DNA from: an uncultured beta proteobacterium
GTDB taxonomy: Bacteria > Pseudomonadota > Gammaproteobacteria > Burkholderiales > Thiobacillaceae
Assembly (NCBI GenBank): GCA_963782495.1
Contig: CAWAJU010000005.1
Location: 204,260-268,259, forward strand
DNA length: 64,000 nucleotides
Direction: 5' to 3'
Shown: positions 14,384 to 62,895 of the stretch, piece after piece
Position numbering within the stretch: position 1 is the stretch's first letter
How the letters are laid out: each line of letters begins with the position of its first letter
Made by a program: the position numbers and the translations under genes
The notes under the pieces: model-generated
Databases searched by the model: none
The model's input: the letters and a program-made list of their open reading frames with translations, nothing else
What the model was told of the DNA's origin: nothing

Positions 14384-15124
14384 CTAGAGTCTCGCACTCC
14401 TCCCCCCATCCACCGCAATCACCTGCCCCGTCACATAGGGCGCATCGCACACCAGGAAGCGTACGGCGCGGGCGATATCGCTCGGCTCGCCAGCGGACTT
14501 GAGGATGGTGTTGGAAATGATGCGCTGGCGCGAAAGCTCGTCGAAATTGGGATCGTCCTCGGGCCACACGATAGGGCCGGGCGCCACCGCATTCACCCGC
14601 ACTTCAGGCCCCAACTCACGTGCCAGCGATTTCGTCAGCCCCACCAGTCCGGCTTTCGCGACGGAATACACAACATAGTTTTCCATCGGCCTGTCGGCGT
14701 GAATGTCGGTGATGTTGACGATGCAACCGCGGTGCTTGCGCAGTTCCGGCGCCGCCGCCTGGGAAAGAAACATCGGCGCTTTCAGGTTGGTGCCCATCAG
14801 GTCAACCCAGTCACGCTCGCTGATGCTTCCCACCAGGGTCGGATAAAAGCTGGACGCATTGTTCACCAGCACATCGAGGCGGCCGAAGCTGGCGACCGTC
14901 TGGTTGACCAGACTGGTCAATAACCCAGTGTCGAGCAAGTCCGCCTGGATCAGGGAAACCGAATCGGGCCGCAGGTCATTGAGTTCGTCCTGCAGTGCGC
15001 GCGCAGCCTCGGCGGAGTTGCGGTAATGAATCATCAGGTTCATGCCCTCGCCGTGCAGGGCGCGGGCGATCTGCGCCCCAACCCTCCGGGACGCCCCTGT
15101 AATCAGCGCAACTTTGCCTTGCAT
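14384..15124 (-). CDS. Short-chain dehydrogenase, pteridine reductase-like
   Basis: Start at MQGKVALITGASRRVGAQIA. SDR fold motifs including YSVAK. Resembles FolM/PTR1-type reductases. Confidence 0.8.
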   Translation of the reverse strand: MQGKVALITGASRRVGAQIARALHGEGMNLMIHYRNSAEAARALQDELNDLRPDSVSLIQADLLDTGLLTSLVNQTVASFGRLDVLVNNASSFYPTLVGSISERDWVDLMGTNLKAPMFLSQAAAPELRKHRGCIVNITDIHADRPMENYVVYSVAKAGLVGLTKSLARELGPEVRVNAVAPGPIVWPEDDPNFDELSRQRIISNTILKSAGEPSDIARAVRFLVCDAPYVTGQVIAVDGGRSARL

Positions 15125-15183
15125 CTCCCACACCCCGTATAGTTCTGACCTTACGCATTATCCATCAAGCCCTGCCCGTCGTC

Positions 15184-16320
15184 ATGCCTCAAGTGCCTCC
15201 ACCCTCGGACGATGCCCGCGCCAGCAGCGAGCGCCTGCTTGCCCGGATGCGGGAGGCGATCGCGACCGACGGCTGGCTCAGCTTTGCCCGCTACATGGAG
15301 CTTGCCCTCTATGCCCCCGCCCTGGGTTATTACAGTGGCGGCGCGCGCAAATTTGGCTCGGCCGGCGACTTTGTCACTGCTCCCGAAATCTCTCCCCTGT
15401 TTGGCCGCGTGCTTGCGCGGCAACTGGCCGAGGTGCTTGACCAGTCCGGCAAAGCGCTCCTGGAACTGGGCGCCGGTACCGGCAGGCTGGCGGCACAGAT
15501 TCTGGGCGAGCTGAAACAGCTGGGGAAGCCGGCGTCCTATTCCATCCTGGAAGTGAGCAGCGAATTGCGCCAGCGGCAGGAGCAAACCCTGGAGCAGGCG
15601 GGTTTGGCCGGGGCGGTGACCTGGCTGGACACGCTACCCGAGACGTTCTCTGGCATCGTATTCGGCAACGAGGTGCTGGATGCGCTGCCGGTTCACCTGA
15701 TCCACTGGACCGCACAGGGTCCCATGGAGCGCGGGGTGGTCTGGAAGGAAGACCAACTGCGCTGGCAGGACCGGCCCATCGCTGATGCCCTGCTGCTGAA
15801 GCAGGCTGCTGCGCTCGATCTGCCACCCGGCTATGTCAGCGAAATCAATCTTGCCTCGCCCGCCCTGGTAAGGGAGCTGGGCCGGCGCTTGCAAGCCGGC
15901 ATGCTGCTGTTCGTCGACTATGGCTACGGGCGTAGTGAGTACTACCATCCACAACGCCATATGGGCACACTACGGGCACACTACCGACATCATGCACTGG
16001 ATGACCCGTTTCATTTGCCCGGGTTGACCGATCTGAGCGCACATGTGGATTTCACGGCCGTCGCCGAAGCGGGGCTGGAGGCAGGACTGGACTTGCTGGG
16101 CTATACGAGCCAGGCGCATTTTCTCGTCAATGGCGGCATTACGGCCTTGCTGGCTGGAATCCCCGTCGAAGCGGCGACCCGCTATGCACCGCTTGCAAGC
16201 GGTGCGCAAAAGCTGCTGTCTCCGGTCGAAATGGGCGAGTTGTTCAAGGTGATGGGATTGGGCAGGCAGGTGATCGCGCCGAGCGGTTTTGTTACCGGTA
16301 GCCTGGCCAGGCTGCTGTAG
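15184..16320 (+). CDS. SAM-dependent methyltransferase (COG1565 / MidA-NDUFAF7-like)
   Basis: 378 aa. Contains YYSGGARKFGSAGDFVTAPEISPLFG and LLELGAGTGRLA motifs. Confidence 0.75.
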   Translation: MPQVPPPSDDARASSERLLARMREAIATDGWLSFARYMELALYAPALGYYSGGARKFGSAGDFVTAPEISPLFGRVLARQLAEVLDQSGKALLELGAGTGRLAAQILGELKQLGKPASYSILEVSSELRQRQEQTLEQAGLAGAVTWLDTLPETFSGIVFGNEVLDALPVHLIHWTAQGPMERGVVWKEDQLRWQDRPIADALLLKQAAALDLPPGYVSEINLASPALVRELGRRLQAGMLLFVDYGYGRSEYYHPQRHMGTLRAHYRHHALDDPFHLPGLTDLSAHVDFTAVAEAGLEAGLDLLGYTSQAHFLVNGGITALLAGIPVEAATRYAPLASGAQKLLSPVEMGELFKVMGLGRQVIAPSGFVTGSLARLL

Positions 16321-16326
16321 CACAAG

Positions 16327-17472
16327 CTAGTGAAGGTGCTGCGGTGCCTGTCCGGATTCTTCCGGTTCTTCAGTGTGCACCGAATCACCAGACGGTGTGG
16401 GAAACAGCGGCGCGCCGCAGTCTTCGCAGTATTCCAGCGGCAGGCGCCCTTCCAGCACGGTGATGTCCTTCACCCCCAGGCGTTGCAACTGCTGGGCGAT
16501 GTCATCGGGTATGCCTTCGATGTCTTCGGTATCCAGCAGCGGCCAGACGATGCCGTGAACCAGCCCGGTTTTCGCCATCAGCCCGAAGCTGACCCGATAT
16601 TCTTCAAGCTCCCGGTCGCCATAAGGTGCGATGACCACGCGCAATTGCACCGGTGCCACACTAAAGCTTGCGCCGAGGAATTCAACCGCGGCTCCCAGGC
16701 TGAAAGCGCGCAATTGTCGATCCGCTTCGCGCGCTGCGGCGAAATAGGCGTTGGGCAGGAGCAGTTGCAGAGCGCAGGCCGGCAAGGCAGGTCGCAACGC
16801 TTCCCCACCCTGGGTTTGCCAGGCCTTGAGCACCGATTCGCGGCTCACGTCCTGCTCCTGCCAATGGAACAAGGGCTGGTCCGGCCGGGTTCGGGCGAGG
16901 CCTATCAGATAGCGCACATCGGACAGGAAAGGCGCGGTGGGTGGCAGTTGGTCGCTGCTCATGGACAAGGCCTGGGCCTTGTCCAGCGCGCGCAGCAGCT
17001 GGGCCGCAAGCCTGCGGGTTTCACTGAAACCGCGCGGCAACTGATCCGGACTCAACAGGCAGTCGGCGAGGCTCAGTTCCACACCGGAGGCAAATACATG
17101 GGCGCCCAATTGCACGCTCAGGTTGGCGACCAGTTCGGCCTTGAGGGCGCCTGCCGGCAAAGCAAAGCGCGACCACGCGAGAATGGGGACCGCGATGAGC
17201 AGGGTGTTATCGGCCGGACTTTCCGACCGCGCCTCGACGGCGTCGGCCAGTTCATCATAGGCCAGACGATCCAGGTTGAAGGCATGATCCAGAGCGGCAA
17301 ACAGCGCATCGTCGTTGCCCGCGCCAAGCAGCTTCTCGATGACGCTGCGCAGCGAGCGCTCCCAAAACTCATCCTCAGTGCGGCTGCCGGATTCGGATAA
17401 GTCCTGCGCCAGGCGCACCAGTTTCTCCGCTTCGCGGGAAAGGGATTTGTCATGGGGTCGGGTGCGTTTCAT
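16327..17472 (-). CDS. Conserved hypothetical protein (possibly DUF2863-like)
   Basis: 381-aa ORF with coding-like composition. Family assignment is from memory only. Confidence 0.55.
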   Translation of the reverse strand: MKRTRPHDKSLSREAEKLVRLAQDLSESGSRTEDEFWERSLRSVIEKLLGAGNDDALFAALDHAFNLDRLAYDELADAVEARSESPADNTLLIAVPILAWSRFALPAGALKAELVANLSVQLGAHVFASGVELSLADCLLSPDQLPRGFSETRRLAAQLLRALDKAQALSMSSDQLPPTAPFLSDVRYLIGLARTRPDQPLFHWQEQDVSRESVLKAWQTQGGEALRPALPACALQLLLPNAYFAAAREADRQLRAFSLGAAVEFLGASFSVAPVQLRVVIAPYGDRELEEYRVSFGLMAKTGLVHGIVWPLLDTEDIEGIPDDIAQQLQRLGVKDITVLEGRLPLEYCEDCGAPLFPTPSGDSVHTEEPEESGQAPQHLH

Positions 17473-17529
17473 GGAGCTAGCGTATTCCTTTCAGGGACAA
17501 AAGTCGCCCGAATTCTTCCCGCCCGCGCC

Positions 17530-20244
17530 CTAGTTCAGGCGCCCATGACAATGCTTGTATTTCTTGCCACTGCCGCACGGGCAGGGGTCGTTGCGCCCCA
17601 CCTTGGGCACGCCGGAATCGAGCGCTGCCATGGCCATAGGCATGGCGGCCTGGGCCAGCGCCACATCCGGGTCGGCATGCTGATATTGCACGTTGGCCGG
17701 GCCTTCATGTTGCTCGACCGCCTGTACATCTTCCTCGGTGCGGACCTGCACGGTAGTGGTAATGCGGGTGACTTCGATCTTGATCGCATCGAGCATGGCA
17801 GAGAACAATTCGAATGCTTCGCGTTTGTATTCCTGCTTGGGATCCTTTTGCGCGTAGCCGCGCAGGTGGATGCCCTGGCGCAGATGGTCAAGCGCGGCCA
17901 GATGCTCACGCCAGTGGGTGTCCATGCTCTGCAGCATTACGGCCTTCTCGAAATGACGCAGCACCTCGGCCCCGACTGCCAGCTCCTTGGCCGCATAAGC
18001 GGCATCCGCCTCGACGCACACCTTGTCGCGCAGGCCTTTCTCGTCCAGCGTCTTGTCCGCATTGAGCCATTCCTGCAGGGGCAGTCTGGATCCGAATTCA
18101 GCCTCGATGGCTCTTTCCGCGCCTTCCACATCCCACTGTTCTTCCATCGAATCGCGTGGAATGTGGGTATCGATCACCGTATTGATCACGTCATGGCGCA
18201 TTGCAGTGATGGTCTCGTCGATATTTTCGCTGGCGAGTAATTCGTTGCGCTGCTCGTAGATGACCTTGCGCTGGTCGTTGGACACATCGTCATATTCCAG
18301 AAGCTGTTTGCGGATATCAAAGTTGCGTGCCTCAACCTTGCGTTGCGCGTTCTCAATCGCGCGCGACACCCAGGGATGTTCGATGGCTTCGCCCTCGGGC
18401 AGCTTGAGCCGGTTCATAATCGCCGCCACGCGGTCGGAGGCAAAAATCCGCAGCAGGGGATCGTCCAGAGCGAGGTAGAAACGCGACGAGCCGGGATCGC
18501 CCTGACGCCCGGCGCGGCCGCGCAATTGGTTGTCCACGCGGCGCGATTCGTGCCGTTCGGTGCCGATGATGTGCAGGCCGCCGGCGGCGAGCACGGCGTC
18601 ATGACGCGGCTGCCATTCAGCCTTGAGCTCGGCGCGCTTCTGCTCCTTCTCGGCCGGCGAGAGACTGGCGTCATCGTCGATGACATCCTGTTGGCGCTGA
18701 ATGCTGCCGCCCAGCACGATGTCGGTCCCGCGACCCGCCATGTTGGTGGCGATGGTGATACCGCCGGTCGCACCAGCCTGTGCGACGATTTCGGCTTCCT
18801 TGGCATGCTGCTTGGCGTTCAGCACCTGGTGCGGCAACTTCTCCTTCTGCAGCAGACCGGAAAGGTACTCGTTGGTTTCGATCGATGTAGTGCCGACCAG
18901 AACCGGCTGGCCGCGGCCATGGCACTCGCGGATATCCTTGATCACGGCCTGGAATTTTTCCGTAGTGGTGAGGAATACCTGGTCATGCATGTCCTCGCGG
19001 ATCATGTCGCGGTGGGTGGGGATCACCACGGTTTCCAGGTTGTAGATAGACTGGAATTCGTAGGCTTCGGTGTCGGCCGTGCCGGTCATGCCGGCGAGCT
19101 TGCCGTACATGCGGAAATAGTTCTGGAAAGTGATCGACGCAAGGGTCTGGTTTTCCTTCTGGATCGCCACGCCCTCCTTGGCCTCAACGGCCTGGTGCAG
19201 GCCCTCCGACCAGCGGCGCCCTGTCATCAGGCGCCCGGTGAATTCGTCGACGATGACGACCTCATTGTTTTGCACCACATAATGCTGATCACGGTGATAT
19301 ACCGAGAACGCGCGCAGGGCGGCGTTGACATGGTGCATCAGACGGATGTTGGCGGCGTCATACAGGCTGCCGCCGCGGGGCAGCAGCCCCATGTCCGTCA
19401 GAAGCTGTTCGATCTTTTCGTGACCGGATTCGGAAATGATGACCGAATGGGCCTTTTCGTCCACCCAGTAGTCGCCGACTTCGCTCTTTTCTTCGGCCTG
19501 CCGACTCAGCTTGGGCGGAATGGCGTTGACGCTGGTGTAGAGCTCGGTGCTGTCCTCGGACTGGCCGGAGATGATCAGCGGCGTGCGCGCCTCGTCGATC
19601 AGGATCGAATCGACCTCGTCGACGATCGCATAAGCCAGACCGCGCTGGACCTTTTCCTCCATCTGGTAAACCATGTTGTCGCGCAGGTAGTCAAAGCCGA
19701 ATTCGTTGTTGGTGCCGTAGGTGATGTCAGCAGCGTAGGCGGCCTGTTTCTCCTCGTGGGACATCTGCGAAAGGTTGACGCCGACCGTCAGGCCGAGGAA
19801 CCGGTAAATGCGCCCCATCCAATCGGCGTCGCGCTGGGCCAGATAGTCGTTGACCGTCACCACGTGCACGCCCTTGCCGGTCAGCGCATTGAGATAGGCC
19901 GCCAAGGTTGCCACCAAGGTCTTGCCCTCGCCGGTGCGCATCTCGGAAATCTTTCCATCATGCAGCACCATGCCACCTATCATTTGCACGTCATAATGGC
20001 GCATGCCAAGCGCGCGGCGGCTGCCTTCGCGTACGACCGCAAAGGCCTCGGCCAAAAGCTTGTCGACCGGCTCGCCGTTGGCAATGCGCTCCTTGAACGC
20101 GGCGGTCTTGGCGCTCAGTTCCGCGTCGGTGAGTTTTTCCAGCGCCGCCTCATGGGCGTTGATCGCCGCGACCTTTTGCCGGTATTGTTTAACCAGCCGG
20201 TCGTTGCGGCTGCCGAATATTTTTTTTGCCAGGGTTTGCAGCAT
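17530..20244 (-). CDS. secA: Preprotein translocase ATPase SecA (canonical, full length)
   Basis: 904 aa. MRTGEGKT Walker [29 protein letters not shown], and the C-terminal zinc motif [14 protein letters not shown]. Confidence 0.97.
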
Positions 20245-20322
20245 GGATAGCCTGAATGAGTTAGTTTCTTGCAGGAAAATCAGAGAATTTTATCATAACG
20301 TGCAAGACCATCTGGTTAGCGC

Positions 20323-20754
20323 ATGACCCAGGCCAAACGTCTGGGCGACCTGCTCGCCACGTCCGGCCAAGGCAAGGTATTGGCGCGTGGCCAGGCGCTA
20401 CTCGCCCTGCAAGCCCGGTTGGATAAATTGTTGCCGGAATCGTTCCGCGGCCAGGTATTTGTCGCCGACCTCAAGGACGGAATCCTGTCCCTGGCCTGCG
20501 CCCACGGCGCGCTCGCCACCCGGCTCAGAAGCGAAGGCCCGCACCTTGCAGAGGCCCTTGCCAAACAGGGCCTGGACGTTCAGCAAGTCAAGATTCTGGT
20601 CCGCCCCGATTTGCCGCTCTACCGTGGCCCAACCAAGGCCAAACCTGGACTGAGCCGAGGCGCCTTGAATGCCTTGACCGAGGTGGAACAATCACTGGAA
20701 CCCGGCGGTCTGCAAACGGCCGTGCGGCGGATGATCCGCAGGCACAGACCCTGA
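20323..20754 (+). CDS. DciA/DUF721-like protein
   Basis: 143 aa, divergent from secA. Sequence and position are typical of DUF721 proteins in beta/gammaproteobacteria. Confidence 0.65.
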   Translation: MTQAKRLGDLLATSGQGKVLARGQALLALQARLDKLLPESFRGQVFVADLKDGILSLACAHGALATRLRSEGPHLAEALAKQGLDVQQVKILVRPDLPLYRGPTKAKPGLSRGALNALTEVEQSLEPGGLQTAVRRMIRRHRP

Positions 20755-21063
20755 TTAGCCTTCCCGAACCTTGGGACCCGCTGGCAACGGGACGGCAACA
20801 GGCCAAGAGGCACTGAAATCAGCTCTTGGCAGTGCAGGCATGCGATCCTGAATCAACCCCGCACATTTGGCTTCAAATCTGGCCGAAATATCCGTTATTT
20901 GAGATGGGGAGAAACTCAGGATCCTCGTCGTCGTCCGAGCGCCCCGTGCATCCGGAACCCTGGCGTCACCACCGGTCCAACCAGGATGCAAACCTTTCCA
21001 ACATCAAGGTGTAACGAAGATGACCAAGGAAGCAGGACCGACACCCCTGGCGGGCAAACGATA

Positions 21064-22017
21064 ATGGGTCTACTGGAACAGAATCTGGAACATCGCGGAG
21101 CCACCCCACCGGGAACGGTGACGGACTCTGTTTCGCGGCTGAGTCAGGACGGATACTTTGTCGCTTCACTTGACGACCTCGGACTCTCAGCCACCCGGCT
21201 CATCCAGGAAGTCGCTCCCCTGTTTGCGCTCGCCGACTGGGACCCCTATGACGTTCGGCGGCGCCAGATCGAGGCGATTGAGCGGCGCATTCCGGCGGGA
21301 CAACTATCCACAGAGGCATTCTGGCAATTGGAGATTGCCCGCGGCCTCTATGCCTGCCCGCTGAAGGATCAGATCGGGGAAGCGAGGCTGCTCCAACGTT
21401 TCAACCTGACCTTCGGCATCGACACAAACACAATTCCGAAGATCGCGCCGTTTCGCAAGAAATGCGTCACCGGACTTGAGCTTGCCCGCGCATCCGGCGC
21501 GTGGAAACTGCGCTCGTTTCGCCAAGGCAATGTGGTGCAATACCTGGGCGACATTCGCGCCATCCCGCGGACCCATCCCGCCATCCCCGAGCAGGCCTTC
21601 GATAGGGGCACCCACCTGCTTCAGACGGTCGAGCGCCTGGTATCAATTGCTGCCGCCCTCCACTTGGACGCAGAAACCGCCACCGCCCGGGTCTGGCTGG
21701 TGGATACTCGATGCCAGACCAGCGAGCAAGTGTCCGTAGTCCCCGAGGGAGATCACCGCGACGGCGCCCATGTGGTGGTGCCAGCCGTGGTCATTGCAAA
21801 CGAGGCCGTGATCGGCGCAAAGAGCCGGATACTTCGGCCTCAAGAAGGCGGTGCGGTTCTGCTGGACGAACGCCAGCTTCAACCCGGCGAGTTGTCCATG
21901 CTCAACGACGAGGTGCTGCTCCACGGCGTGAGCCCGCTTGAGGCGGGCAGCCGCAAGATACTGGGCTTGGACATCGTGTTTGGCGCTGGAAATCCGGACG
22001 CCCTTCTGACATCGTGA
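21064..22017 (+). CDS. 2OG-Fe(II) dioxygenase-family protein (PF10014-like)
   Basis: ORF 20899..22017 trimmed to MGLLEQNLEH. PEGDHRDGAHVV (HxD) plus a distal LLHGVSP histidine give a facial-triad-like pattern. Confidence 0.5.
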   Translation: MGLLEQNLEHRGATPPGTVTDSVSRLSQDGYFVASLDDLGLSATRLIQEVAPLFALADWDPYDVRRRQIEAIERRIPAGQLSTEAFWQLEIARGLYACPLKDQIGEARLLQRFNLTFGIDTNTIPKIAPFRKKCVTGLELARASGAWKLRSFRQGNVVQYLGDIRAIPRTHPAIPEQAFDRGTHLLQTVERLVSIAAALHLDAETATARVWLVDTRCQTSEQVSVVPEGDHRDGAHVVVPAVVIANEAVIGAKSRILRPQEGGAVLLDERQLQPGELSMLNDEVLLHGVSPLEAGSRKILGLDIVFGAGNPDALLTS

Positions 22018-22092
22018 AGTACCCGCGGGATTGCGACCTGTAGATCCCGAGCAAAAGTTCTCGAACCGGCATTGGCGACGTAATGAGCGCGG

Positions 22093-22395
22093 CGAGTCGT
22101 GCTGCGGCCGTTGTTTTGGTTGCTTCAAGAGGCCGGGGGTTGCCCGGTGGCTGGCCATTGGCTTCCATTAGCCGCCAGCCTCAAACCGGGGAGACGTCGC
22201 ACCGACAATTCATGCGGCTTGACCTGAACGACCCCAAGAACATGGGGGCAGAAGATGAGCAGGAGTGTTACCCATGTCTCCGTACGAGCGTTACCTATCT
22301 CGCCGGTCTATACAGCGAAGCAAAAGAAAGTAACTTGCCGCCGGGCAACCCCCGGCCTACGAGGCGAAAGGCCGTGAGGCACGACGCGACCGGCT
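22093..22395. repeat. Inverted-repeat-bounded non-coding element (MITE-like or structured)
   Basis: Perfect 17-bp inverted repeat: GGCCGGGGGTTGCCCGG (22131-22147) and CCGGGCAACCCCCGGCC (22341-22357). The outer arms are imperfectly complementary. Internal tandem 16-mers are GTTACCCATGTCTCCG and GTTACCTATCTCGCCG. Confidence 0.45.
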
Positions 22396-52614: not shown

Positions 52615-53463
52615 ATGCTGAACAAACTGTTTCGTCCGGTGCAATTCTACCCAAGGTTGACAAGAAACCCGATTAGACGGCCAACATATATTGATTGCCT
52701 TGTGCGCAAAGCCTGGGCCAGCTTGCTGCTCGGACTGGTTCTTGCATTGCCTGCGCGGGCAGATGTGGCGGATACCCTGATCCGGGTCAAGGCCGGCGTC
52801 GTGGGCATAGGCACCTACCAGCCCGGTCGCAGTCCGAGCGGGCAACTCAAGGGCACCGGTTTCGTAGTCGGAGACGGCCAGACCATCGCCACCTGCTATC
52901 ACATCGTCAAACCCCTGCTTGACGTGGCCCACAACGAAACGTGGGCGGTATTTGTCGGTCAGGGCCGGGAAGTCCATTACCGCGTGGCCAAGGTGACCGC
53001 CACCGATCCCGCGCATGATCTGGCGCTGTTGCGCTTCGAGGGCAATGCCCTGCCCGCCCTGAAATTGGGCGACATGGACCAGATCCGCGAGGGCGACCAA
53101 CTCTATTTCACGGGCTATCCGATAGGCTCAATATTGGGCTTGTATGCAGCCACACACCGGGCCGGTCTCGCGGCCATTGTCCCCATCTACACGCCGCTGC
53201 CGCGAGCCAGCGAGTTGAATGCCCGCACCATCCGCCAGGCCTCCGACCCATTTCGCGTTTTCCAGCTCGACGCCATCGCCTATCCGGGCAACAGCGGTAG
53301 TCCTTTGTGGCAGCCGGAAAGCGGTGTCGTCATGGGCGTGGTGAATTCAGTCTTTGTCAAAGGTTCAAAAGAAGCCGCACTTACCAACCCCAGCGGGATT
53401 TCTTTCGCGATTCCGGTCGATCATGTCCGCGCATTGATGGATCGGGCCGGAGCGTACAAGTAG
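52615..53463 (+). CDS. Trypsin-like (S1C) serine protease, secreted
   Basis: His (ATCYHIV), Asp (DLALLRF) and Ser (GNSGSPLW) triad context. The start may be GTG 52702, just before the signal-like WASLLLGLVLALPARA. Confidence 0.75.
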   Translation: MLNKLFRPVQFYPRLTRNPIRRPTYIDCLVRKAWASLLLGLVLALPARADVADTLIRVKAGVVGIGTYQPGRSPSGQLKGTGFVVGDGQTIATCYHIVKPLLDVAHNETWAVFVGQGREVHYRVAKVTATDPAHDLALLRFEGNALPALKLGDMDQIREGDQLYFTGYPIGSILGLYAATHRAGLAAIVPIYTPLPRASELNARTIRQASDPFRVFQLDAIAYPGNSGSPLWQPESGVVMGVVNSVFVKGSKEAALTNPSGISFAIPVDHVRALMDRAGAYK

Positions 53464-54784: not shown

Positions 54785-55224
54785 GGATGCAAGCAAAACT
54801 GATACGCAGACCCCATTGTATTCGCCCTGGCGCGAGGAACTCACAACTGGAGACACCGCACAACCCGGTCCCAAGTGGAAAACCGCCGCCGTTCGTCGGC
54901 GCATTGTAAAGCGAATTAACCGGAAAAACGCCAAGCTCTTCGTCGGCTTTCCGCCAAGCTTGATGGCGCACTGTCGGCAGTGACTTCTTCTCCCTCTGTT
55001 TCACGCCGGTCCGTACGCGTTTCGATCTGCGCCGCGTATTGATTTTCAAACGTTTTCTTGCCGCCTCAACCAGATGGGCAAAACGCTTGCCGCGGACCCG
55101 TTTTCAATCTTTAAAGACACCCTTTTATCTTGTTCACAACCCCGGGTTTTCTGGCACGGAAATCTTGTTCAAGTCATGAATATCACGGTCGATAACTCCG
55201 GTAGGCAATAACAAAAAACCTGAA

Positions 55225-56667
55225 ATGCAAATCCCGGTTGCCCTGTCCTCGCAGTACCTGCCCAGGTCGCAGACTCTGGCGACCACTGACGCCCTTTGTA
55301 CTGCGTTGTCCGCCGAACAGTATCTGCAGCTGCAGGCTGAGGTATTGGGTCGCGGCCAATTTGCCGAGGCGGCAACCGCACTCGCCCAGCAACTTGCCTG
55401 CAGACTGGCTTGCGATCGAGTCAGTATCGGCTGGCTCAGCCGCCATGGAATGCTTGTAGCGGCGACCTCCTATGTAGCAGAATTACACGTGCGTCAGGAA
55501 ACCGCCCGGCTGGTCGGCGCTGCAATGGATGAGGCGGCCGAGCAGGGCAGCGCCCTGATCCACCCCGAGCCGGAAGGCGGCAAGCCTCGAATTCGGCTGG
55601 CCCATGAGGAATTGGCACGGCGCCAAGGCTATGCGCTGTGCACCGTCCCTTTAGTTCACGGCGGGACCGTGGTCGGCGCTTTCACGCTGGAACGCCGGGA
55701 GGGGTGCTTCAGCGTTGAAGAAGGGATGCTTTACGAACATCTCGCCTGCATGCTGGCGCCTGTCCTCGCACTCAAACACGAGAACGACCTTTCGCTCTGG
55801 CAACGCGGCCTGATCGCCGCCAAGATCCGCCTGCGCTGGGGTACCGGCACAGCAGTAAGCAAGCCGCACATTTTCGGGCTTACTGCGGGCTTTGCTCTGC
55901 TCGCTTTCATCGCACTGTTCCCCTTTACCTATAGCGTCAGCGCGCCAGCGCGCCTCGAAGGCGCGTTCCAGCGAGTATTGTCCGCGCCCACTGATGGCTT
56001 CTTGAGCAAGGTCTACGTGCGCCCCGGCGATCGGGTGAAAGCCGGACAGATGCTGGCCGAACTGGCCGATCAGGACCTGCTGGTCGAGCAACGCGGCTTG
56101 CAAGCCGAGCTGGCCCAGAACGAAAACGCGCTGGTTGCCGCACAGGCCAAGGGAGATCGAGCCGAATACGGCATCAACCAAGGCAAGGCCGAGGCGGCAC
56201 AGGCCAAGTTGGAACTGATCCAGCAACAACTGGAACGTGCGCATGTGCGCGCGCCATTTGACGGCGTGATTATCAAGGGCGACCTGAGCCAGTCGGTCGG
56301 GGCTCCGCTGGAGCGCGGTGCCGAGCTCCTCACGCTGGCTCCGGACACTGGCTACCGGGTGATGATCGAAGCGGAAGAGAGCGAAGTGGCCGAACTGAAG
56401 CCCGGCCAGAGCGGCCGCTTAATCCTCGCGGCCATGCCTGTCCAAACCATGCCGATCCGATTGGAGCGGATCACTTCACTTGCGACCACGGAGAATGGCC
56501 GGCATTACTTTGCCGTGTATGCAGCCCTGGACTGCAGGCAGCCCGGCCTGCGCCCGGGCATGCAGGGCGTGGCCAGGATAGCGGTGGACCGGCGCCCCAT
56601 GCTGATGAACTGGCTCACGCGCAGTTTCAGTTGGTTGCGCTTCAAGCTCTGGTCCTGGGGCGCCTGA
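55225..56667 (+). CDS. GAF-domain / transmembrane / HlyD-like periplasmic adaptor protein
   Basis: 480 aa. N-terminal about 190 aa is GAF-like (VSIGWLS...ALCTVPLVHGGTVVGAFTLER). One TM helix (IFGLTAGFALLAFIALFPF). Then a lipoyl/coiled-coil/beta-barrel pattern typical of the HlyD/MFP family (GFLSKVYVRPGDRVKAGQMLAEL, VRAPFDGVI). Confidence 0.75.
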   Translation: MQIPVALSSQYLPRSQTLATTDALCTALSAEQYLQLQAEVLGRGQFAEAATALAQQLACRLACDRVSIGWLSRHGMLVAATSYVAELHVRQETARLVGAAMDEAAEQGSALIHPEPEGGKPRIRLAHEELARRQGYALCTVPLVHGGTVVGAFTLERREGCFSVEEGMLYEHLACMLAPVLALKHENDLSLWQRGLIAAKIRLRWGTGTAVSKPHIFGLTAGFALLAFIALFPFTYSVSAPARLEGAFQRVLSAPTDGFLSKVYVRPGDRVKAGQMLAELADQDLLVEQRGLQAELAQNENALVAAQAKGDRAEYGINQGKAEAAQAKLELIQQQLERAHVRAPFDGVIIKGDLSQSVGAPLERGAELLTLAPDTGYRVMIEAEESEVAELKPGQSGRLILAAMPVQTMPIRLERITSLATTENGRHYFAVYAALDCRQPGLRPGMQGVARIAVDRRPMLMNWLTRSFSWLRFKLWSWGA

Positions 56668-56668
56668 C

Positions 56669-58819
56669 ATGGCAACGGATTCACTGTTCAGCCCCAACTG
56701 GTATCGGGTTTGCGCCTTGCATCCGCAACTGGGCGGGCATGTCCGGGTCCAGCGTCAACCCAGCCGCGACCGCCAATGGTATGTGCTCATCGATGGCGCA
56801 AGCGGCCGTCAGCATCGGGTCAATGACCTTGCCTACCAGTTTGTCGGGCGTTGCAATGGCCGCTACAACGCGCAGCAGATCTGGGAAAGCCTGTTCGAAA
56901 CCCTGGCCGATGATACTCCCACCCAGGATGAGATCGTCCGTCTGATCGGCCAGTTGGTTGAAGCTGGTTTACTGCAAGTGGAAAAACAGTCGGATGTGGA
57001 AGCCTTGTTCGAACGCCATCAGGAACGCGCCGGCAGGATTCGCCGCAGCGCCCTCAACCCCCTGTCGTTCCGTATCCCCTTGTTCAACCCGGCTTCACTG
57101 CTGCAACGCCTTGATGGTGTCGCCCAGCAGATCTTCAGCCCCTGGGTGCTTTGGCTGTGGCTGGTCATCATGGGCATTGCACTGATGACGGCATTTGCCC
57201 ACTGGAATGAACTGCGCGCCCAAGCTGCCACCACCATGCTGACGCCGCGCTATCTCATCCTGCTGTGGCTGTGTTTTCCGCTCATCAAGGCGTTGCATGA
57301 ACTGGCTCATGGTCTGGCGGTTCGCCGCTGGGGCGGCGAGGTCACGCAGATGGGTGTGGCCCTGCTACTCCTGGTGCCTGCGCCCTACGTCGACGCGTCG
57401 GCGGCCTCGGCCTTCCGTCCAGCCTACCAGCGGGTCATGGTGAGCGCGGCCGGAATCATGACCGAGTTGCTGCTTGCCGCCTTAGCCCTAATGGTCTGGC
57501 TCAATGTCGAGCCTGGCCTGGTACGTGACATCGCCTTCGTCTTCCTGTTCATCGGTAGCGTCTCGACCGTGCTGTTCAACGGCAATCCGCTGCTGCGCTT
57601 TGATGGCTATTACATGTTGAGCGACGCGCTCAATCTGCCCAACCTGGCCACACGCAGCAGCCGTTACTGGGCCTACCTGGCGCAACGCTATCTGCTCAAG
57701 CTACCCGATCCGGCATCTGTCGAGCCCGGCCACGGGGAGCGCTTCTGGCTCTTGCTCTACGCGCCCCTGGCGTGGGCTTACCGACTGCTCATCAGCCTGG
57801 TGATCGCATTCTGGATCGCTTCAAAATCCGCCCTTCTGGGGCTGGCTGTGGGCCTGTACATGCTCCACGGCAGTCTGGCAAAACCGATTTACCGCGTGTT
57901 GCACTTCGCCTTCTTCTCCCCAAGCTTGGGCAACCGGCGCCTGCAAGCCCGAGCCCTCGCGTCTGCGACCCTGGTCCTGGCGGTCGTGGCGCTGGCGGCC
58001 TTGCCCATACCTTCCAACACTACCGCTGAAGGCGTGGTCTGGCTGCCGGAAAAGGCTCAATTGCGCGCCGAGACCGGCGGCTTCGTAGTCAAACTACTGG
58101 CCCGCGACGGCGAGCGCGTGCGGACCGGTCAACTGATCGCCGTTCTGGAAGATCCCACCCTGATCACCCAGCAGCAGGATCTGCAAAGCCAGTATGACGC
58201 CTTGCGCACCGAATATTTCGAATCCCTGCTGAGCAATCCGCTGAAAGCCAGGAACGCCGACCAGGCGCTGCAGAAAATCCGACCGGAACTCGAGCGTAGC
58301 GAGGACAAGCTCGCGCAACTCAAGGTGCGCGCCCAAACCGACGGCACCCTCGTCATGCCCGGACAGCAGGACCTGCCGGGCGTGTTCGTGAAGCAGGGCG
58401 CCCTGCTCGGCTATGTGTTCAGTCCCGATCAGGTGAGGGTACGCGCAGTGGTCGACGAAAAGGATATTGCCTTGGTTCGCAAGCGCACGCGGGCAGTCGA
58501 TGTACTGCTGGCAGAAAACGCCCGGCAGCCTCTGCGCGCCAGCCTCGCGCAAGAGACCCCGGCAGCCACGCACACCCTGCCCAGTCCCGCGCTCGGCGAC
58601 CGGGCAGGCGGCAGCCAGATTACCGATCCCACTGACCAGGACGGCGTGCAAACCCTGGAGCCGGTATTTCTGGTGGACCTGTTACTGCCGCGCGATGCCA
58701 CGCGTCGCGTGGGTGGGCGCGCCTGGGTGCATTTCGACCATGGCACCGAACCGCTTGCTCTGCAATGGGGCCGCCGTCTCCGGCAGCTCTTCCTCAAGCA
58801 TTTCGACCAAGCGGCTTGA
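56669..58819 (+). CDS. PqqD-like (RRE) domain / M50 site-2-protease-like membrane metalloprotease / HlyD-like domain fusion
   Basis: 716 aa, starting 2 nt after the upstream stop. N-terminal WYVLIDGASGRQHRVNDLAYQFVGRCNGRYNAQQIWESL...LVEAGLL is PqqD-like. HELAHG (HExxH) in a TM helix plus NGNPLLRFDGYY (M50 second motif). C-terminal GFVVKLLARDGERVRTGQLIAVLED plus a coiled coil is HlyD-like. Confidence 0.75.
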   Translation: MATDSLFSPNWYRVCALHPQLGGHVRVQRQPSRDRQWYVLIDGASGRQHRVNDLAYQFVGRCNGRYNAQQIWESLFETLADDTPTQDEIVRLIGQLVEAGLLQVEKQSDVEALFERHQERAGRIRRSALNPLSFRIPLFNPASLLQRLDGVAQQIFSPWVLWLWLVIMGIALMTAFAHWNELRAQAATTMLTPRYLILLWLCFPLIKALHELAHGLAVRRWGGEVTQMGVALLLLVPAPYVDASAASAFRPAYQRVMVSAAGIMTELLLAALALMVWLNVEPGLVRDIAFVFLFIGSVSTVLFNGNPLLRFDGYYMLSDALNLPNLATRSSRYWAYLAQRYLLKLPDPASVEPGHGERFWLLLYAPLAWAYRLLISLVIAFWIASKSALLGLAVGLYMLHGSLAKPIYRVLHFAFFSPSLGNRRLQARALASATLVLAVVALAALPIPSNTTAEGVVWLPEKAQLRAETGGFVVKLLARDGERVRTGQLIAVLEDPTLITQQQDLQSQYDALRTEYFESLLSNPLKARNADQALQKIRPELERSEDKLAQLKVRAQTDGTLVMPGQQDLPGVFVKQGALLGYVFSPDQVRVRAVVDEKDIALVRKRTRAVDVLLAENARQPLRASLAQETPAATHTLPSPALGDRAGGSQITDPTDQDGVQTLEPVFLVDLLLPRDATRRVGGRAWVHFDHGTEPLALQWGRRLRQLFLKHFDQAA

Positions 58820-58827
58820 CGACTGAC

Positions 58828-60816
58828 ATGGCCTGCCTTCTACCCACCTCCACGTTGCCGCAACCCGGCCTGATCTGGGGTCTTTATCCGGAAAAACCCC
58901 GGCCGGCCGGCGACCCGTCCTGGACCAGTCGTCTGAGCGCCTTATCCGCACGCTTTGCCAGGCCTGGTCTGCGCTTCCATACCGCAATCGCGATACGCTC
59001 CGAGGCACTGGAGCAGAGCCTGGGCAGTCAGGACAGCGCCGCCTTCGCCCAGGCGGTCAAAACGCTCAGGCAGGAGCTATCCCGCCGGGGCCTTACGCCC
59101 GAACTCATCACTCAAGCCTTCGCCCTGGTCAGTCTGGCCTGTCGGCGCCACCTCGGCCTGTCGCCGTTCACCGCCCAGCGGATCGCCGCGTCCATCATGT
59201 TGGAAAACCGGCTGGCGGAAATGGCCACTGGCGAGGGCAAGACCCTGGTTGCCGCCCTGGTTGCCGGGACCGGCGGGTTGGCAGGCATGCCCGTGCACGT
59301 GCTGACCGCCAATGATTATCTGGTGGCGCGCGATGCGGAAAGGCTTAAGCCCGTCTATGAATCGCTGGGGCTTGCGGTCGGCGCCGTGCAGCAAACCATG
59401 GACAGCCGCGCCCGGCGTGCCGCCTATGCCTGCGACATTACCTACTGCACGGCCAAGGAATTGGTCTTCGATTATTTGCGCGATCAGCCCTTGCGCGAGC
59501 GTACCGAGCTGGCCAGGCGCGCCGCGCGACTTGAAGGGCCAGCCGTTGCCGGCCCCAGCACCCTGCTGCGCGGCTTGTGCATGGCCGTGATCGATGAAGC
59601 AGACAGCATATTAATCGACGAGGCGCGCGTGCCCTTGGTCATTTCCGAATTGCACCACCAAGCCGACAAGCAGGAAGCCACGGTGCAACTGTTGCATCTG
59701 GCCACCGGTCTGCAACGGGGTAAAGACTTTCTCCTGGAAGTCCAAAGCCAGTCTGCGGCGCTGACCGAGGCCGGACGCGCGCAGCTGGCGGCACACGCCG
59801 GAAACTTGCATCCCGCCTGGCGTAATCGCCGTCTCGGCGAAGAGAATCTTTGCCTCGCTCTTGCCGCTCTGCACCTGTTCCAGCGCGACCAACATTATCT
59901 GGTACGCGCCGGCGCCGTGCATATCATCGATGAAACCACCGGCCGTCTCGCGACCGGACGTACCTGGTCGCGTGGCCTGCATCAACTCATCGAGATCAAG
60001 GAGAACTGCCAGCCCAGTGGCGAAACCGTCACCCGGGCGCAAATCACTTACCAACGCTTCTTCCCCCGGTATCTCAGGCTGTGCGGGATGAGCGGCACAC
60101 TCGCCGAATCGCGCGGCGAACTGGCGCGCATCTACAGGCTGCCAGTTGTGCGCGTTCCGCTGCGCCTGCCCAACCGCCGCATTGAAACCAGTCATCGCGT
60201 CTTTCTCAAGCGCAGCCAGCAATGGCAGGCAGTGACCGAGCGGGCGGGCGAGCTGCTGCGCTCCCAGCGGCCGGTGTTGATAGGCACGGACTCGGTCGCC
60301 GATTCCGAAAGTCTGTCCGCGCACCTGGTCCGGGCCGGACTGCCGCATGCCGTGCTCAATGCGCGCAATGATGGAGAGGAAGCCGCCATTGTCGCCCTGG
60401 CCGGCCAAGCCGGCCGCATTACCGTCGCCACCAACATGGCCGGCCGCGGCACTGACATTCCCCTTGGTCCGGGCGTCGCCGCGCGCGGCGGACTGCACGT
60501 GATCGGTTGTCAGATGAACAGCGCGCGACGCATCGATCGCCAACTCAAGGGCCGCTGTGCACGCCAGGGCGACCCCGGCAGTGCGGAATCCGTGCTGAGT
60601 CTGGACGCCCCGCTCGTCGCACGTAACCTGCCCAAGGATCTACTGCACCTGGCCGGAAAACTGGCCGGGCGCGCGAACGGCCGACTGCCTGGCTGGCTGG
60701 GGAGACTGCTCGCCGCCCTGGCGCAGCGTCTGGAAGAATCCCGCCATCAGGGACAGCGCGCCCTGCTGCTGCATCAGGATCAGCAAATCGACCGCCAGCC
60801 GGTGTTCAGGGACTAG
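58828..60816 (+). CDS. Truncated SecA-like ATPase (second SecA paralogue)
   Basis: ORF 58765..60816 with start taken at MACLLPTS (58828). [38 protein letters not shown] and RQLKGRCARQGDPGS align block by block with the canonical SecA at 17530..20244. It ends about 70 aa after NBD2. Confidence 0.8.
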   Translation: MACLLPTSTLPQPGLIWGLYPEKPRPAGDPSWTSRLSALSARFARPGLRFHTAIAIRSEALEQSLGSQDSAAFAQAVKTLRQELSRRGLTPELITQAFALVSLACRRHLGLSPFTAQRIAASIMLENRLAEMATGEGKTLVAALVAGTGGLAGMPVHVLTANDYLVARDAERLKPVYESLGLAVGAVQQTMDSRARRAAYACDITYCTAKELVFDYLRDQPLRERTELARRAARLEGPAVAGPSTLLRGLCMAVIDEADSILIDEARVPLVISELHHQADKQEATVQLLHLATGLQRGKDFLLEVQSQSAALTEAGRAQLAAHAGNLHPAWRNRRLGEENLCLALAALHLFQRDQHYLVRAGAVHIIDETTGRLATGRTWSRGLHQLIEIKENCQPSGETVTRAQITYQRFFPRYLRLCGMSGTLAESRGELARIYRLPVVRVPLRLPNRRIETSHRVFLKRSQQWQAVTERAGELLRSQRPVLIGTDSVADSESLSAHLVRAGLPHAVLNARNDGEEAAIVALAGQAGRITVATNMAGRGTDIPLGPGVAARGGLHVIGCQMNSARRIDRQLKGRCARQGDPGSAESVLSLDAPLVARNLPKDLLHLAGKLAGRANGRLPGWLGRLLAALAQRLEESRHQGQRALLLHQDQQIDRQPVFRD

Positions 60817-60819
60817 GCC

Positions 60820-62895
60820 ATGATGTATCGATTGTTCCGCGGTTATCTTCCCAAGGCGGTCAATCCGCAGTTCTATCTCACCCGCATGCTGCGCCGCATG
60901 GATCCGCTACGCGCAGCATCCGAGCTGTTACGTTCAGCTTTGAATGTCCTGACAGACGACCTGCTGATCGTCGACACCCAGGGCCGCGTGGTGTTGGCGA
61001 ACCGGCGATTTGCCGATCTGCTGGGCCAGACTCGGCAAACCCTGATCGGGCAGTCGCTCGATACCCTGGCATGGCAGGACAGCCATGGGGAGCCACTTGG
61101 CGCTGGCACCTATCCATGGGAAATCGCGCTCCAGCGGGGCGCTACGACGCGCCTCAACAGGTTATGGCTGACCGATAGTCACGGCGTACGCCGCGCCTTC
61201 CTGGCCAATTGTTCGCCCCTTCCCGTGGGCGACGGCAAGTGCGGGGGCGCCATGATTTCGCTGGATGAGATTGCCGGACTTGACGCAGACAAGATCGAAC
61301 CGCATCGCCCGGTGCATAAAGTCGATGGCGGGACCTACGCCGCAAGCCTGGCCCTGGCCGACACGGCCCATGAGATCCGTTCGTCCCTCAACGCGACGCT
61401 GGGCTTTACCGAGTTGCTGCGCCGCGGCCAGTTCAAGGACGACGCTGACTACCGGTGCCACCTAGATATCGTTCACTCCAGCAGCAGGCATTTGCTGGAA
61501 CTTGTCAACGGCATTCTGGACATTTCCAGTGCGGAATCTGGCGCGTTGGAGGTGAAACTGGGCGACTGCGCACCGTACCGGATTGCGCACGAAGTCGTGC
61601 AAGCCGAGAGCGTCAGGGCTTGCGGAAGGCGCGCGTCCATTGAACTGGTCTGCCCCGGTTCGATTCCCGCATGTATCCAGAGCGACCCGGCGCGCCTGCA
61701 CCAGATTGTCGGCCATCTCGTCCGCCATGTGACCGCGTATTCAAGCGGGGGCGACGTCAAGCTTGTCCTGCGCTTCATCGCGGCGCGTCCTCAGGCACAG
61801 CTTCTGTTCGAAATCAGCAGCAACGAGACAGCAGAAGGCAAGCCGAAAACCCCGATTGAACCGTCAATCCAGGCTGGCCTGGCAACGGCCAGGCGCTTGG
61901 GCGGCGCCGGCCTGGGACTGACACTGAGCCTTCGACTAGCCCGCGCCATCGGTGCTGAACTGGTCATGAGACGCGTCCCTGGCGTTGCCCGAACCTTTGT
62001 GCTCAAGCTGCCCGCCGGCCCGATTGAAGCCATCAGGCTGATCACTCCGGAACAGGCGGCGAGCCAGCAGGGCGGCGCGAATCCGGCGGTTGGTTCACAC
62101 TGGAAACTTTCCCCCGCGCGCGTGCTGATTGTGGATGACGCTCCCGAAAACCGCGAACTGGTGCGCCTGGTCATGGAGGATGCGGGAGCCGTGACCGAAC
62201 AGGCGGAAAACGGCCTCACCGCGGTGGAAAAGGCGCGATCCCGACACTACGACCTCATTCTCATGGATCTGCATATGCCCGGCGCGGATGGCGCCACCGC
62301 AACTCGCCTGCTGCGTCAATATGGCCTGAAGGCACCCATCGTGGCGCTGACCGCGCACTCCTTGAAGAACCTGGAACAGGAGCTTATTGATGCTGGTTTC
62401 ACGGCCTATCTCGCCAAGCCGATAGAAATAGACCGATTGTTGGCCACCGACGCCTCGCTGGTCGGTGGCACCCGTGTTTGCCAGCCGCTTAACAAGCTCG
62501 CTGCGCTGCCGATTAAACCCGTATACGGCAGCAACCTGCCGCAACTGCCCATCGTGTCGCGCCTGGCAGGCAACCCGCGCCTGCAAGCCGCGATCAACAA
62601 ATTTCTTGCCCGCCTTGGCGGCCAGCTAAGCGCGATTGAACTGGCCTGGCAGGCCCGCGATTTCGAGACACTCGCCAGCCTGGCGCACTGGCTAAAGGGA
62701 GCGGGGGGCACAGTGGGGTTCGATTCGTTCAACGAGCCCGCCAAGAGATTGGAACAGCTGTCCAAAACAAAACAGGCGGACGACATGGAGGAAGTGCTAA
62801 TGGAATTGAAGGACATATCTGCACGCATTGTGCGGCCACAGGTCGCGGCCAGTACTTCAACCCCGGGTCCCGAGCAGACACGGGTCAAGCCCTAG
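60820..62895 (+). CDS. Hybrid sensor histidine kinase (PAS - HisKA - HATPase - REC - HPt)
   Basis: 691 aa. PAS-like N-terminus, H-box AHEIRSSLNATLGF, G-box GGAGLGLTLS, receiver VLIVDDAPENRE...LMDLHMPGADG, and a C-terminal HPt-like segment (LAHWLKGAGGTVG). Confidence 0.88.
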   Translation: MMYRLFRGYLPKAVNPQFYLTRMLRRMDPLRAASELLRSALNVLTDDLLIVDTQGRVVLANRRFADLLGQTRQTLIGQSLDTLAWQDSHGEPLGAGTYPWEIALQRGATTRLNRLWLTDSHGVRRAFLANCSPLPVGDGKCGGAMISLDEIAGLDADKIEPHRPVHKVDGGTYAASLALADTAHEIRSSLNATLGFTELLRRGQFKDDADYRCHLDIVHSSSRHLLELVNGILDISSAESGALEVKLGDCAPYRIAHEVVQAESVRACGRRASIELVCPGSIPACIQSDPARLHQIVGHLVRHVTAYSSGGDVKLVLRFIAARPQAQLLFEISSNETAEGKPKTPIEPSIQAGLATARRLGGAGLGLTLSLRLARAIGAELVMRRVPGVARTFVLKLPAGPIEAIRLITPEQAASQQGGANPAVGSHWKLSPARVLIVDDAPENRELVRLVMEDAGAVTEQAENGLTAVEKARSRHYDLILMDLHMPGADGATATRLLRQYGLKAPIVALTAHSLKNLEQELIDAGFTAYLAKPIEIDRLLATDASLVGGTRVCQPLNKLAALPIKPVYGSNLPQLPIVSRLAGNPRLQAAINKFLARLGGQLSAIELAWQARDFETLASLAHWLKGAGGTVGFDSFNEPAKRLEQLSKTKQADDMEEVLMELKDISARIVRPQVAASTSTPGPEQTRVKP

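Follow-up and report, generated by a model that had tools for sequence, protein, structure and literature searches.

A SecA paralogue, an RRE-M50-HlyD fusion and a GAF-HlyD adaptor as the candidate core of a type-1-like exporter of giant LEPR-leader adhesins in a Thiobacillaceae genome

The 64,000-nucleotide stretch of DNA analysed here (hereafter the window), taken from contig CAWAJU010000005.1 of an uncultured beta proteobacterium of the Thiobacillaceae, carries at positions 55225-60816 a module of three tightly packed genes. These encode a GAF-HlyD adaptor, a fusion of a PqqD-like RiPP recognition element (RRE; RiPP, ribosomally synthesized and post-translationally modified peptide) with an M50 metalloprotease and an HlyD-like adaptor, and a shortened SecA paralogue. 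We consider it moderately probable that the three genes encode the core of a type-1-like exporter which would depend on an N-terminal leader and carry giant surface adhesins out of the cell in one step; the link between the module and giant adhesins as its cargo is strongly suggested by what is encoded around it. More tentatively, the module may represent a distinct and so far unnamed secretion pathway of didermic bacteria, a dedicated route for proteins with a LEPR-XLL leader. The preliminary description of this DNA had proposed a three-gene machine for the processing and export of a peptide or protein, with a SecA-like ATPase in place of the usual ATP-binding cassette (ABC) energiser and an RRE-bearing intramembrane protease selecting or cleaving the substrate. 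This logic is still the best supported, whereas the unit proves to be larger than three genes and the cargo is most likely a giant adhesin and not a small peptide, because a giant LEPR-XLL/DUF4347/cadherin gene follows in the operon. The observations on which we build are the domain content, folds, conserved motifs and order of the genes, and their association with genes for LEPR-leader proteins.

The operon is laid out as follows, in window coordinates, or in window-equivalent coordinates for what lies on the same contig beyond the end of the window.

55225-56667, plus strand: GAF-HlyD protein with one transmembrane (TM) helix, 480 residues, intact open reading frame (ORF)
56669-58819, plus strand: fusion of PqqD-like RRE, M50 metalloprotease and HlyD adaptor (M50 fusion), 716 residues, intact ORF
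58828-60816, plus strand: SecA paralogue, 662 residues, intact ORF
60820-62895, plus strand: hybrid histidine kinase, PAS-HisKA-HATPase-REC-Hpt by Pfam
62906-64000, plus strand: REC-GGDEF-EAL response regulator, cut at the window end; the full protein has 612 residues and its gene would end at window-equivalent 64744
64746-65609 (window-equivalent), starting 746 nt past the window end: short HlyD adaptor, 287 residues, HlyD_D23/HlyD_3 with an N-terminal signal-like segment

The gaps amount to 1 nt between the GAF-HlyD gene and the M50 fusion, 8 nt between the latter and the SecA paralogue, 3 nt from there to the hybrid kinase and 10 nt from the kinase to the REC-GGDEF-EAL gene. The ORF boundaries are identical in the independent ENA gene calls for the same contig, so that the plus-strand arrangement first read from the sequence, including its spacing, stands. 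On the complete ENA contig (309 kb, hereafter L082, whose coordinates equal the window coordinates minus 46668) it is evident that the window cuts the operon: the kinase is followed by the REC-GGDEF-EAL gene, 1 nt later by the short HlyD gene and 57 nt after that by the giant gene. Response_reg, GGDEF and EAL are all found in the full REC-GGDEF-EAL gene, which continues on the contig beyond the window; the GGDEF motif of its product reads AGDEF. Here the operon includes the kinase and REC-GGDEF-EAL genes, which separate the SecA paralogue from the short HlyD with gaps of 3, 10 and 1 nt; in the close relatives L005 and L008 the homologous kinase is found instead 3' of the giant gene.

The giant protein of the window's own contig starts LNPVADFRRRPLIEELEPRLLFSADFAP / RRRPLIEELEPRLLFSAD and carries DUF4347, followed after a frameshift by cadherin and Big_9 repeats. 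Its leader is matched by the 24-residue LEPR-XLL model NF012209 (LEPR-8K) with 20.9 bits against a cutoff of 17, over residues 12-33, and the giant proteins encoded after the module in relatives score 19.5-25.2 bits with the same model; the latter have 1,900-2,900+ residues and contain DUF4347, Cadherin_4/5, Big_9 and tandem-95 repeats. The frameshift splits the gene at L082 21416-21418 (window-equivalent ~68084) into an ORF of 805 residues and a cadherin-repeat ORF in another frame; the name of the contig points to a long-read assembly, and the interruption is perhaps an indel error rather than the mark of a pseudogene. A motif and large-ORF search of the 64-kb window found neither a LEPR leader nor a giant gene within it, and when the neighbouring giant proteins were scanned with Pfam and NCBIfam, neither RTX nor HemolysinCabind families came up.

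Complete giant proteins are also alike at their ends, where a highly conserved run of hydrophobic character (GLSVGYVLWLxRGGVLLSSLLSSLPAWRLIDPLPIL) precedes the acidic tail DDDSLExML. This C-terminus is shared by the proteins encoded at L005 14036-20833, L007 13879-21744, L008 8306-13960, L020 5321-9088, L031 12654-16892 and L053 15839-21892. A membrane anchor is one possible role of this hydrophobic run, a second sorting signal another; in the former case the secretion duct might keep the adhesin tethered. In an alignment of DUF4347 (L082 ~19190-19700) the motifs ISHGxxG and LLYGCDVA are conserved about 40 residues apart, a pair reminiscent of the His/Cys dyad of caspase-like (clan CD) or self-processing domains.

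The leader was analysed in 118 unique instances, which yield the consensus R-R-R-P-[LV]-[VI]-E-E-[LI]-E-P-R-[IL]-L-[YF]-S-A-D-[FL]-A-P, in short form RRRP-LIEELEPRILYSAD, with FRRRPLIEELEPRLLFSADFAPTLL as the leader peptide. Conservation reaches 98-100% at the residues E, E, R, L, S, A and D, and one of the glutamates is 99% conserved even though it was absent from the requirements of the search pattern. The nearest possible start codon lies a median of 12 residues upstream, and the leader is charged, non-hydrophobic and not Sec-like.

Starting from the module, a long ORF with this leader begins on the same strand within 5 kb after the SecA paralogue at 33 of the 46 loci that offer at least 5 kb of sequence there; a single leader ORF is found upstream, in divergent orientation. 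The association reaches Deltaproteobacteria, Gammaproteobacteria and Omnitrophota. Starting from the leader, a reverse set of 80 metagenome contigs (L083-L162) was chosen only by the presence of leader and DUF4347. Here, the SecA paralogue is found within 5 kb upstream of the leader gene on 20 of 36 contigs with at least 5 kb of upstream sequence, and a short HlyD gene within 1.5 kb upstream in 42/70. Where 6 kb or more of upstream sequence is available (26 contigs), the short HlyD and the SecA paralogue are both present in 11, only the short HlyD in 8, only the SecA paralogue in 4 and neither in 3, so that one or both precede the leader gene in 23/26. Clearly, the linkage between module and LEPR gene is strong, if not obligatory. 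On contig JACDJB010000010.1 (L101 and L087) the module is followed directly by one leader gene, and a second, with a short HlyD, comes 13 kb later; because two leader genes are present there, the module may serve several cargo genes. The short HlyD precedes only one of the two on this contig, and in the close Thiobacillus relatives L005, L007 and L008 the giant gene comes after the SecA paralogue with no short HlyD in between.

A leader of this kind has been met before in other bacteria. The planctomycete motif RRLxxExLExRxLLA was described for surface proteins as a new export signal at the N-terminus by Studholme et al. 2004, as cited in PMC8567305, which counts 52 proteins with it in T. immobilis; the leader defined here and the adjoining giant proteins, that of the window's own contig included, fit this published consensus. 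The giant proteins of Chlorobium chlorochromatii (20,000-36,000 residues) carry LEPRxLL, and a horizontally acquired 'secA', Cag_1676, belongs to the same transcription cluster as these giants (bioRxiv 10.64898/2026.03.19.712371). Cag_1676, which may be the SecA paralogue, is a lead only; the taxa in which a secondary SecA locus was described include Planctomycetes and one Chlorobi species (PMC4452313). The searchable literature on LEPR and the planctomycete motif contains no assignment of the leader to an export machinery: its link to the module is what we infer from the present analysis, and it appears to be new.

The conservation of the module was followed in 82 loci found through the M50 fusion. 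The SecA paralogue lies on the strand of the M50 fusion in 77/82 loci; of the 69 loci where the M50 gene is followed by 2.2 kb or more of sequence, 61 have the paralogue directly 3' of that gene, and the GAF-HlyD gene is upstream of the M50 fusion in 68 of 70 informative loci. Since this gene order recurs, the arrangement is not due to chance. All-against-all clustering of the ORFs in the 82 loci gives as recurrent neighbours, besides the SecA paralogue and proteins with HlyD domains, giant proteins (in 45 loci) and GGDEF proteins (in 27 loci); conserved ABC transporters, genes for a Sec channel, small precursor ORFs and tailoring enzymes did not emerge. A conserved cluster of minus-strand ORFs of ~718 residues was rejected as a partner: its members mirror, in GC-rich DNA, the GAF-HlyD and SecA genes on the antisense strand. 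Homologues of the M50 fusion of ~715 residues number in the thousands, as do those of the SecA paralogue of ~660 residues, which come mostly from betaproteobacterial metagenome-assembled genomes (MAGs), and a profile of the M50 fusion run on GTDB representatives, one genome per species, confirmed at least 587 loci. Among the loci listed are Beta-, Gamma- and Deltaproteobacteria, Nitrospira (Nitrospirota), Rokubacteria and Omnitrophota, with the isolates Piscinibacter (Ideonella) sakaiensis 201-F6 and Denitromonas halophila as carriers of the M50 fusion. The nearest relatives of this betaproteobacterium are Thiobacillus and Thiobacillaceae MAGs, at 70-75% protein identity. At L060, from a Candidatus Omnitrophota MAG, the M50 fusion gene is followed at 12648-22094 by a gene for a 3,149-residue protein with the variant leader FEAMESRILLSAN; in the crude ORF map available for this locus a separate SecA-like ORF is not called between the two genes.

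Every domain named in the preliminary description was recovered by profile searches. The SecA paralogue matches SecA_DEAD (284 bits), SecA_PP_bind and P-loop_SecA (Pfam/NCBIfam). It aligns to residues 46-597 of B. subtilis SecA and ends 15 residues later, and thus consists of nucleotide-binding domain 1 (NBD1), the preprotein cross-linking domain, NBD2 and a short C-terminal tail. The Walker A motif MATGEGKT, the DEAD-box IDEADS and the NBD2 motif are kept, and a TM scan predicts no TM helix. In SecA the C-terminal third is made up of the greater part of the helical scaffold, the helical wing domain, the C-terminal linker and the two-helix finger, which inserts into SecY; the paralogue is too short to accommodate the wing, the finger or the linker, which bears out the earlier view of a SecA-like motor without the C-terminal SecYEG-interacting parts. 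Compared with curated models (NCBIfam), it stays under every SecA and SecA2 cutoff: for housekeeping SecA the scores are 498.6 vs 800 (TIGR00963) and 492 vs 814 (PRK12904), and for SecA2 408.8 vs 930 (TIGR03714), 431.3 vs 725 (TIGR04221), 455.5 vs 1085 (TIGR04397) and 348.1 vs 1100 (NF012136).

These data also bear on an accessory Sec route, in which the paralogue would hand the giants to SecYEG in the manner of a mycobacterial-type SecA2, the M50 protein would then be a leader or signal peptidase and HlyD with TolC would serve a second, separate step across the outer membrane. In agreement with this, the paralogue is genuinely homologous to SecA and has its motor and preprotein cross-linking domain intact, its scores with SecA2 models are high (408-455 bits) and a dedicated inner-membrane channel gene is absent from the locus. 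However, it has lost the two-helix finger and most of the scaffold that engages SecY, the charged and non-hydrophobic leader is unlike a Sec signal peptide, and three adaptor-domain proteins are coupled genetically to the ATPase, which is typical of one-step tripartite systems. We regard this route as unlikely.

The two adaptor-bearing proteins of the core have also the architecture first attributed to them. In the GAF-HlyD protein Pfam identifies GAF (30.9 bits, cutoff 22.4), GAF_2, HlyD_3, HlyD_D23 and Biotin_lipoyl_2, and the NCBIfam model RND_mfp TIGR01730 is passed with 95.6 bits against a cutoff of 94.9. A TM scan places its single TM helix at residues 216-234, with the GAF domain in the cytoplasm and the adaptor domain in the periplasm.

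The M50 fusion is divided as follows.

Residues ~17-102: RRE, followed by a low-confidence linker
Residues ~158-444: M50 protease
Residues 446-716: adaptor with alpha-hairpin

PqqD (PF05402) matches residues 38-102 with 23.9 bits (gathering cutoff 23.4), Peptidase_M50 (PF02163) scores 23.5 bits, under its gathering threshold of 27.2, and HlyD_D23 33.4 bits. The strongest match is to the daptide intramembrane metalloprotease NF041824 (E 3e-44; 151.7 bits, under the cutoff of 300), whose model positions 16-358 align to residues 36-399 of the fusion; YydH/LiaK NF058609 also matches (E 7e-8), under the family cutoff. At least seven TM helices are present. The HExxH motif (H210, E211, H214), which sits in helix 193-220, and a second motif NxNPxxxxDG at 304-313 (N304-x-N306-P307-x4-D312-G313) are invariant in 77 M50-fusion homologues; zinc-dependent proteolysis would be expected of an M50 peptidase.

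The folds were predicted with AlphaFold2, with a predicted local distance difference test score (pLDDT) of 84.5 for the full-length protein and 80.4 for residues 1-445. In these models the RRE has the winged helix-turn-helix fold, with strands 25-32, 35-42 and 48-52 and helices 53-59, 68-82 and 86-98; the linker 107-128 has a pLDDT <50 in the full-length model, where it is drawn as a helix, and the alpha-hairpin of the adaptor (residues 496-549, 27+26 residues) is of the TolC-docking type. Foldseek finds MexA, AcrA and MacA with the full-length model and, with residues 1-445, the M. jannaschii site-2 protease 3B4R as top match (probability 1.0), followed by TbiB1, a lasso-peptide RRE whose structure includes the bound leader peptide (probability 1.0, target TM-score 0.69-0.73). 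The profile of the M50-fusion family, furthermore, matches PqqD 3G2B over its full length (E 1.1e-5). The assignments as RRE, site-2-type protease and adaptor are in this way each supported by two or three independent lines, and the PqqD-like/M50/HlyD reading of the fusion is upheld by profile matches, invariant motifs and Foldseek, with the M50 Pfam score under its cutoff.

Two further alternatives centre on this protein. Site-2 proteases classically carry out regulated intramembrane proteolysis, and the M50 domain might cut a membrane-tethered regulator or the anchor of an adhesin, in the manner of a site-2 protease or of LapG, with the SecA paralogue as unfoldase or chaperone. The conserved hydrophobic segment at the end of the complete giants, as a possible membrane anchor, and the cyclic di-GMP (c-di-GMP) genes embedded in the operon would suit such a role; yet the protease is fused to a full adaptor of the TolC-docking type and flanked by two more adaptors, the RRE suggests recognition of an N-terminal leader and not of a C-terminal anchor, and no conserved anti-sigma or sigma factor genes are found in the neighbourhood of the 82 loci, so that we hold this role to be decidedly improbable. 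Least probable of all is a RiPP-type pathway in which the RRE-M50 part would mature a short peptide, as do daptide MpaM and YydH, for export through the adaptors and TolC with the giants as bystanders: RiPP leader proteases are indeed the nearest curated families of the N-terminal 400 residues, the RRE is a RiPP hallmark and its nearest solved fold is a lasso-peptide RRE, but the daptide score of 151.7 is far under the cutoff of 300, the conserved leader-like motif sits on giant proteins, a polypeptide-threading SecA motor is hard to square with a small peptide, and the idea was dropped as principal explanation because ORF clustering of the 82 loci revealed no conserved small ORF and no modifying or tailoring enzyme.

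For the one-step export of giant adhesins, which we favour, the following mechanism can be outlined. The cytoplasmic PqqD-like RRE of the M50 fusion would bind the leader, by analogy with other RiPP recognition elements, and the intramembrane M50 metalloprotease would remove it. The soluble SecA paralogue, which has kept the motor and the preprotein clamp and lost the parts that insert into SecY, would feed the unfolded chain N-terminus first into an inner-membrane assembly, and the GAF-HlyD protein, the M50 fusion and the short HlyD would contribute their adaptor domains to a periplasmic duct that leads to a TolC-type channel. The GAF domain, together with the hybrid kinase and the REC-GGDEF-EAL protein, may tie export to c-di-GMP or to another small-molecule signal.

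A number of points weigh against this scheme. Each of its mechanistic steps is inferred, and the passage through the inner membrane is its weakest point: M50 proteases are not known as conduits for proteins. No TolC gene linked to the module is present at the locus, and the OEP gene at 10550-11992 (see below) shows no evidence of a tie to it. A LEPR gene was not found within 5 kb in 13 of the 46 informative loci, and the contigs of the reverse set with neither partner (3/26) or with the short HlyD alone (8/26) indicate that the linkage is not obligatory. The presence of GGDEF genes near 27/82 loci is in itself weak evidence, such genes being common in these genomes. As to the M50 fusion, its M50 score is under the Pfam gathering threshold and its PqqD score barely over it, and the Foldseek E-values of the RRE and site-2-protease matches are weak (6.5e-3 to 0.6) at probabilities of ~1. 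Finally, the frameshift in the giant gene of the window's own contig may be an assembly error or reflect a pseudogene.

Two further features of the window concern the expression and the possible exit of the system.

54935-55224: 290-nt intergenic region 5' of the GAF-HlyD gene, presumed promoter site
10550-11992, plus strand: stand-alone outer-membrane channel of the OEP/TolC family (Pfam OEP, 200 bits), 43 kb off, a candidate exit duct only

A sigma-70 consensus scan found no promoter site in the 290-nt region upstream of the first gene. As a promoter and terminator scan of the operon likewise yielded nothing exceeding the shuffled expectation, co-transcription is argued from gene spacing only. 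The gene at 10550-11992, called tolC in the preliminary description, does encode an OEP/TolC-family protein. Its neighbours are thiC on one side (7395-9326, minus strand) and a Kdo transferase gene on the other (11951-13237, minus strand), and it is the only gene of its family in the window; its position looks like that of a housekeeping gene and not like a dedicated secretion locus. The absence of an ABC transporter and of secY, secE or secG next to the module was likewise borne out on the contig, within ~8.5 kb upstream and 10 kb downstream. About 1.8 kb upstream of the module a plus-strand gene (52615-53463) encodes a trypsin-like (Trypsin_2) protease of 282 residues, separated from it by a minus-strand gene for a class-III aminotransferase (BioA-like, as read from the sequence); no evidence was found of a tie between this protease and the module. 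The other upstream genes (aminotransferase, UDP-glucose dehydrogenase-like and epimerase) are syntenic in the Thiobacillus MAG L007.

If the proposed function is true, the module is a widespread secretion route made of parts never seen working together, and it explains how giant adhesins are delivered to the surface without a Sec, Tat or C-terminal type 1 secretion system (T1SS) signal. It would also name the machinery that reads the planctomycete export motif, an orphan for 20 years (since 2004); the LEPR-XLL leader is present too on some of the largest bacterial proteins known, those of Chlorobium chlorochromatii. The RRE, so far known from RiPP biosynthesis, would in this case act as a secretion-signal receptor outside natural-product biosynthesis, a SecA motor would work without SecY/SecYEG and an intramembrane protease would be the leader peptidase. 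What exports LEPR-leader surface proteins is now a directly testable question, and cultured carriers exist: Piscinibacter/Ideonella sakaiensis 201-F6 and Denitromonas halophila from the present loci, and Methylobacterium extorquens AM1 (Kamneva 2015, PMC4452313).

Comparison with what has been described begins with the locus itself. It had been stated that no characterised system of this composition was known; the module is indeed experimentally uncharacterised, although its composition was published in 2015 on computational grounds. Kamneva, Poudel and Ward (PLoS One 10:e0129066, PMC4452313) described by bioinformatics a conserved locus of GAF-HlyD, a Peptidase_M50-like membrane protein, a secondary SecA_DEAD protein and HlyD/biotin-lipoyl, to which an OEP gene is sometimes added, in Proteobacteria, Planctomycetes, Verrucomicrobia, Nitrospirae and Chlorobi. 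They noted that the secondary SecA_DEAD proteins are without the wing/scaffold domain, proposed that such a protein takes the place of the ABC ATPase, with the M50 protein as a possible passage through the membrane, and gave the biological role as unknown; the operon META1p2402-2399 of M. extorquens AM1 in their study has the gene order found here. The present module is of this locus type, by identical architecture and gene order: both have a SecA without wing/scaffold, an M50-HlyD, a GAF-HlyD and a stand-alone HlyD, and no ABC transporter, and they differ in the kinase and REC-GGDEF-EAL genes that are inserted here between the SecA paralogue and the stand-alone HlyD gene. The text of the 2015 study makes no mention of PqqD/RRE, a leader, cargo, adhesins or DUF4347, so that the three-gene composition itself is not new, whereas the assignment of cargo and leader, and that of the RRE, appear to be. 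We found no functional study of the module in the literature: a search on SecA_DEAD with HlyD yielded only Kamneva 2015, in a 2021 review in Chem Rev on tripartite and T1SS systems SecA comes up in connection with Sec alone, and nothing relevant was found that joins a SecA-like protein with a membrane fusion protein and a site-2 protease, or RRE, M50 and HlyD in RiPPs.

With the classical T1SS (HlyBD-TolC, LapEBC) the module shares alpha-hairpin adaptors, a likely TolC-type exit and giant repeat-rich adhesins as cargo, and the known c-di-GMP connection of the Lap system is a possible parallel. Unlike these systems, it has no ABC transporter at the locus and no conserved ABC cluster in the 82 loci, and three different adaptor-domain proteins take the place of one. 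The classical signal is C-terminal and uncleaved, whereas the putative signal of the module is N-terminal and probably cleaved; because of this N-terminal position, transport would run from the N- to the C-terminus, opposite in polarity to the classical T1SS.

The peptidase-containing ABC transporters of double-glycine-leader bacteriocins offer a functional analogy only: there too an exporter-borne protease recognises and cuts an N-terminal leader and export is driven by ATP. They combine a C39 cysteine protease with ABC domains, whereas the module has an RRE, an M50 metalloprotease and a SecA-type DEAD motor, and its cargo is thousands of residues long. Housekeeping SecA and SecA2 have in common with the paralogue NBD1, the preprotein cross-linking domain, NBD2 and intact ATPase motifs. 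SecY2/Asp are the partner genes of the streptococcal/staphylococcal type of SecA2; the gene studied here is tied instead to adaptors and a protease. The RiPP leader proteases (daptide MpaM-type NF041824; YydH/LiaK NF058609) possess the same M50-type HExxH core, preceded in the daptide family by the region aligned to the RRE, but the M50 fusion has a periplasmic adaptor in addition, and RiPP precursor or tailoring genes were not found nearby. As for the LEPR-XLL proteins (NF012209), the giant proteins adjacent to the module are like them, in that they score above the LEPR-8K cutoff.

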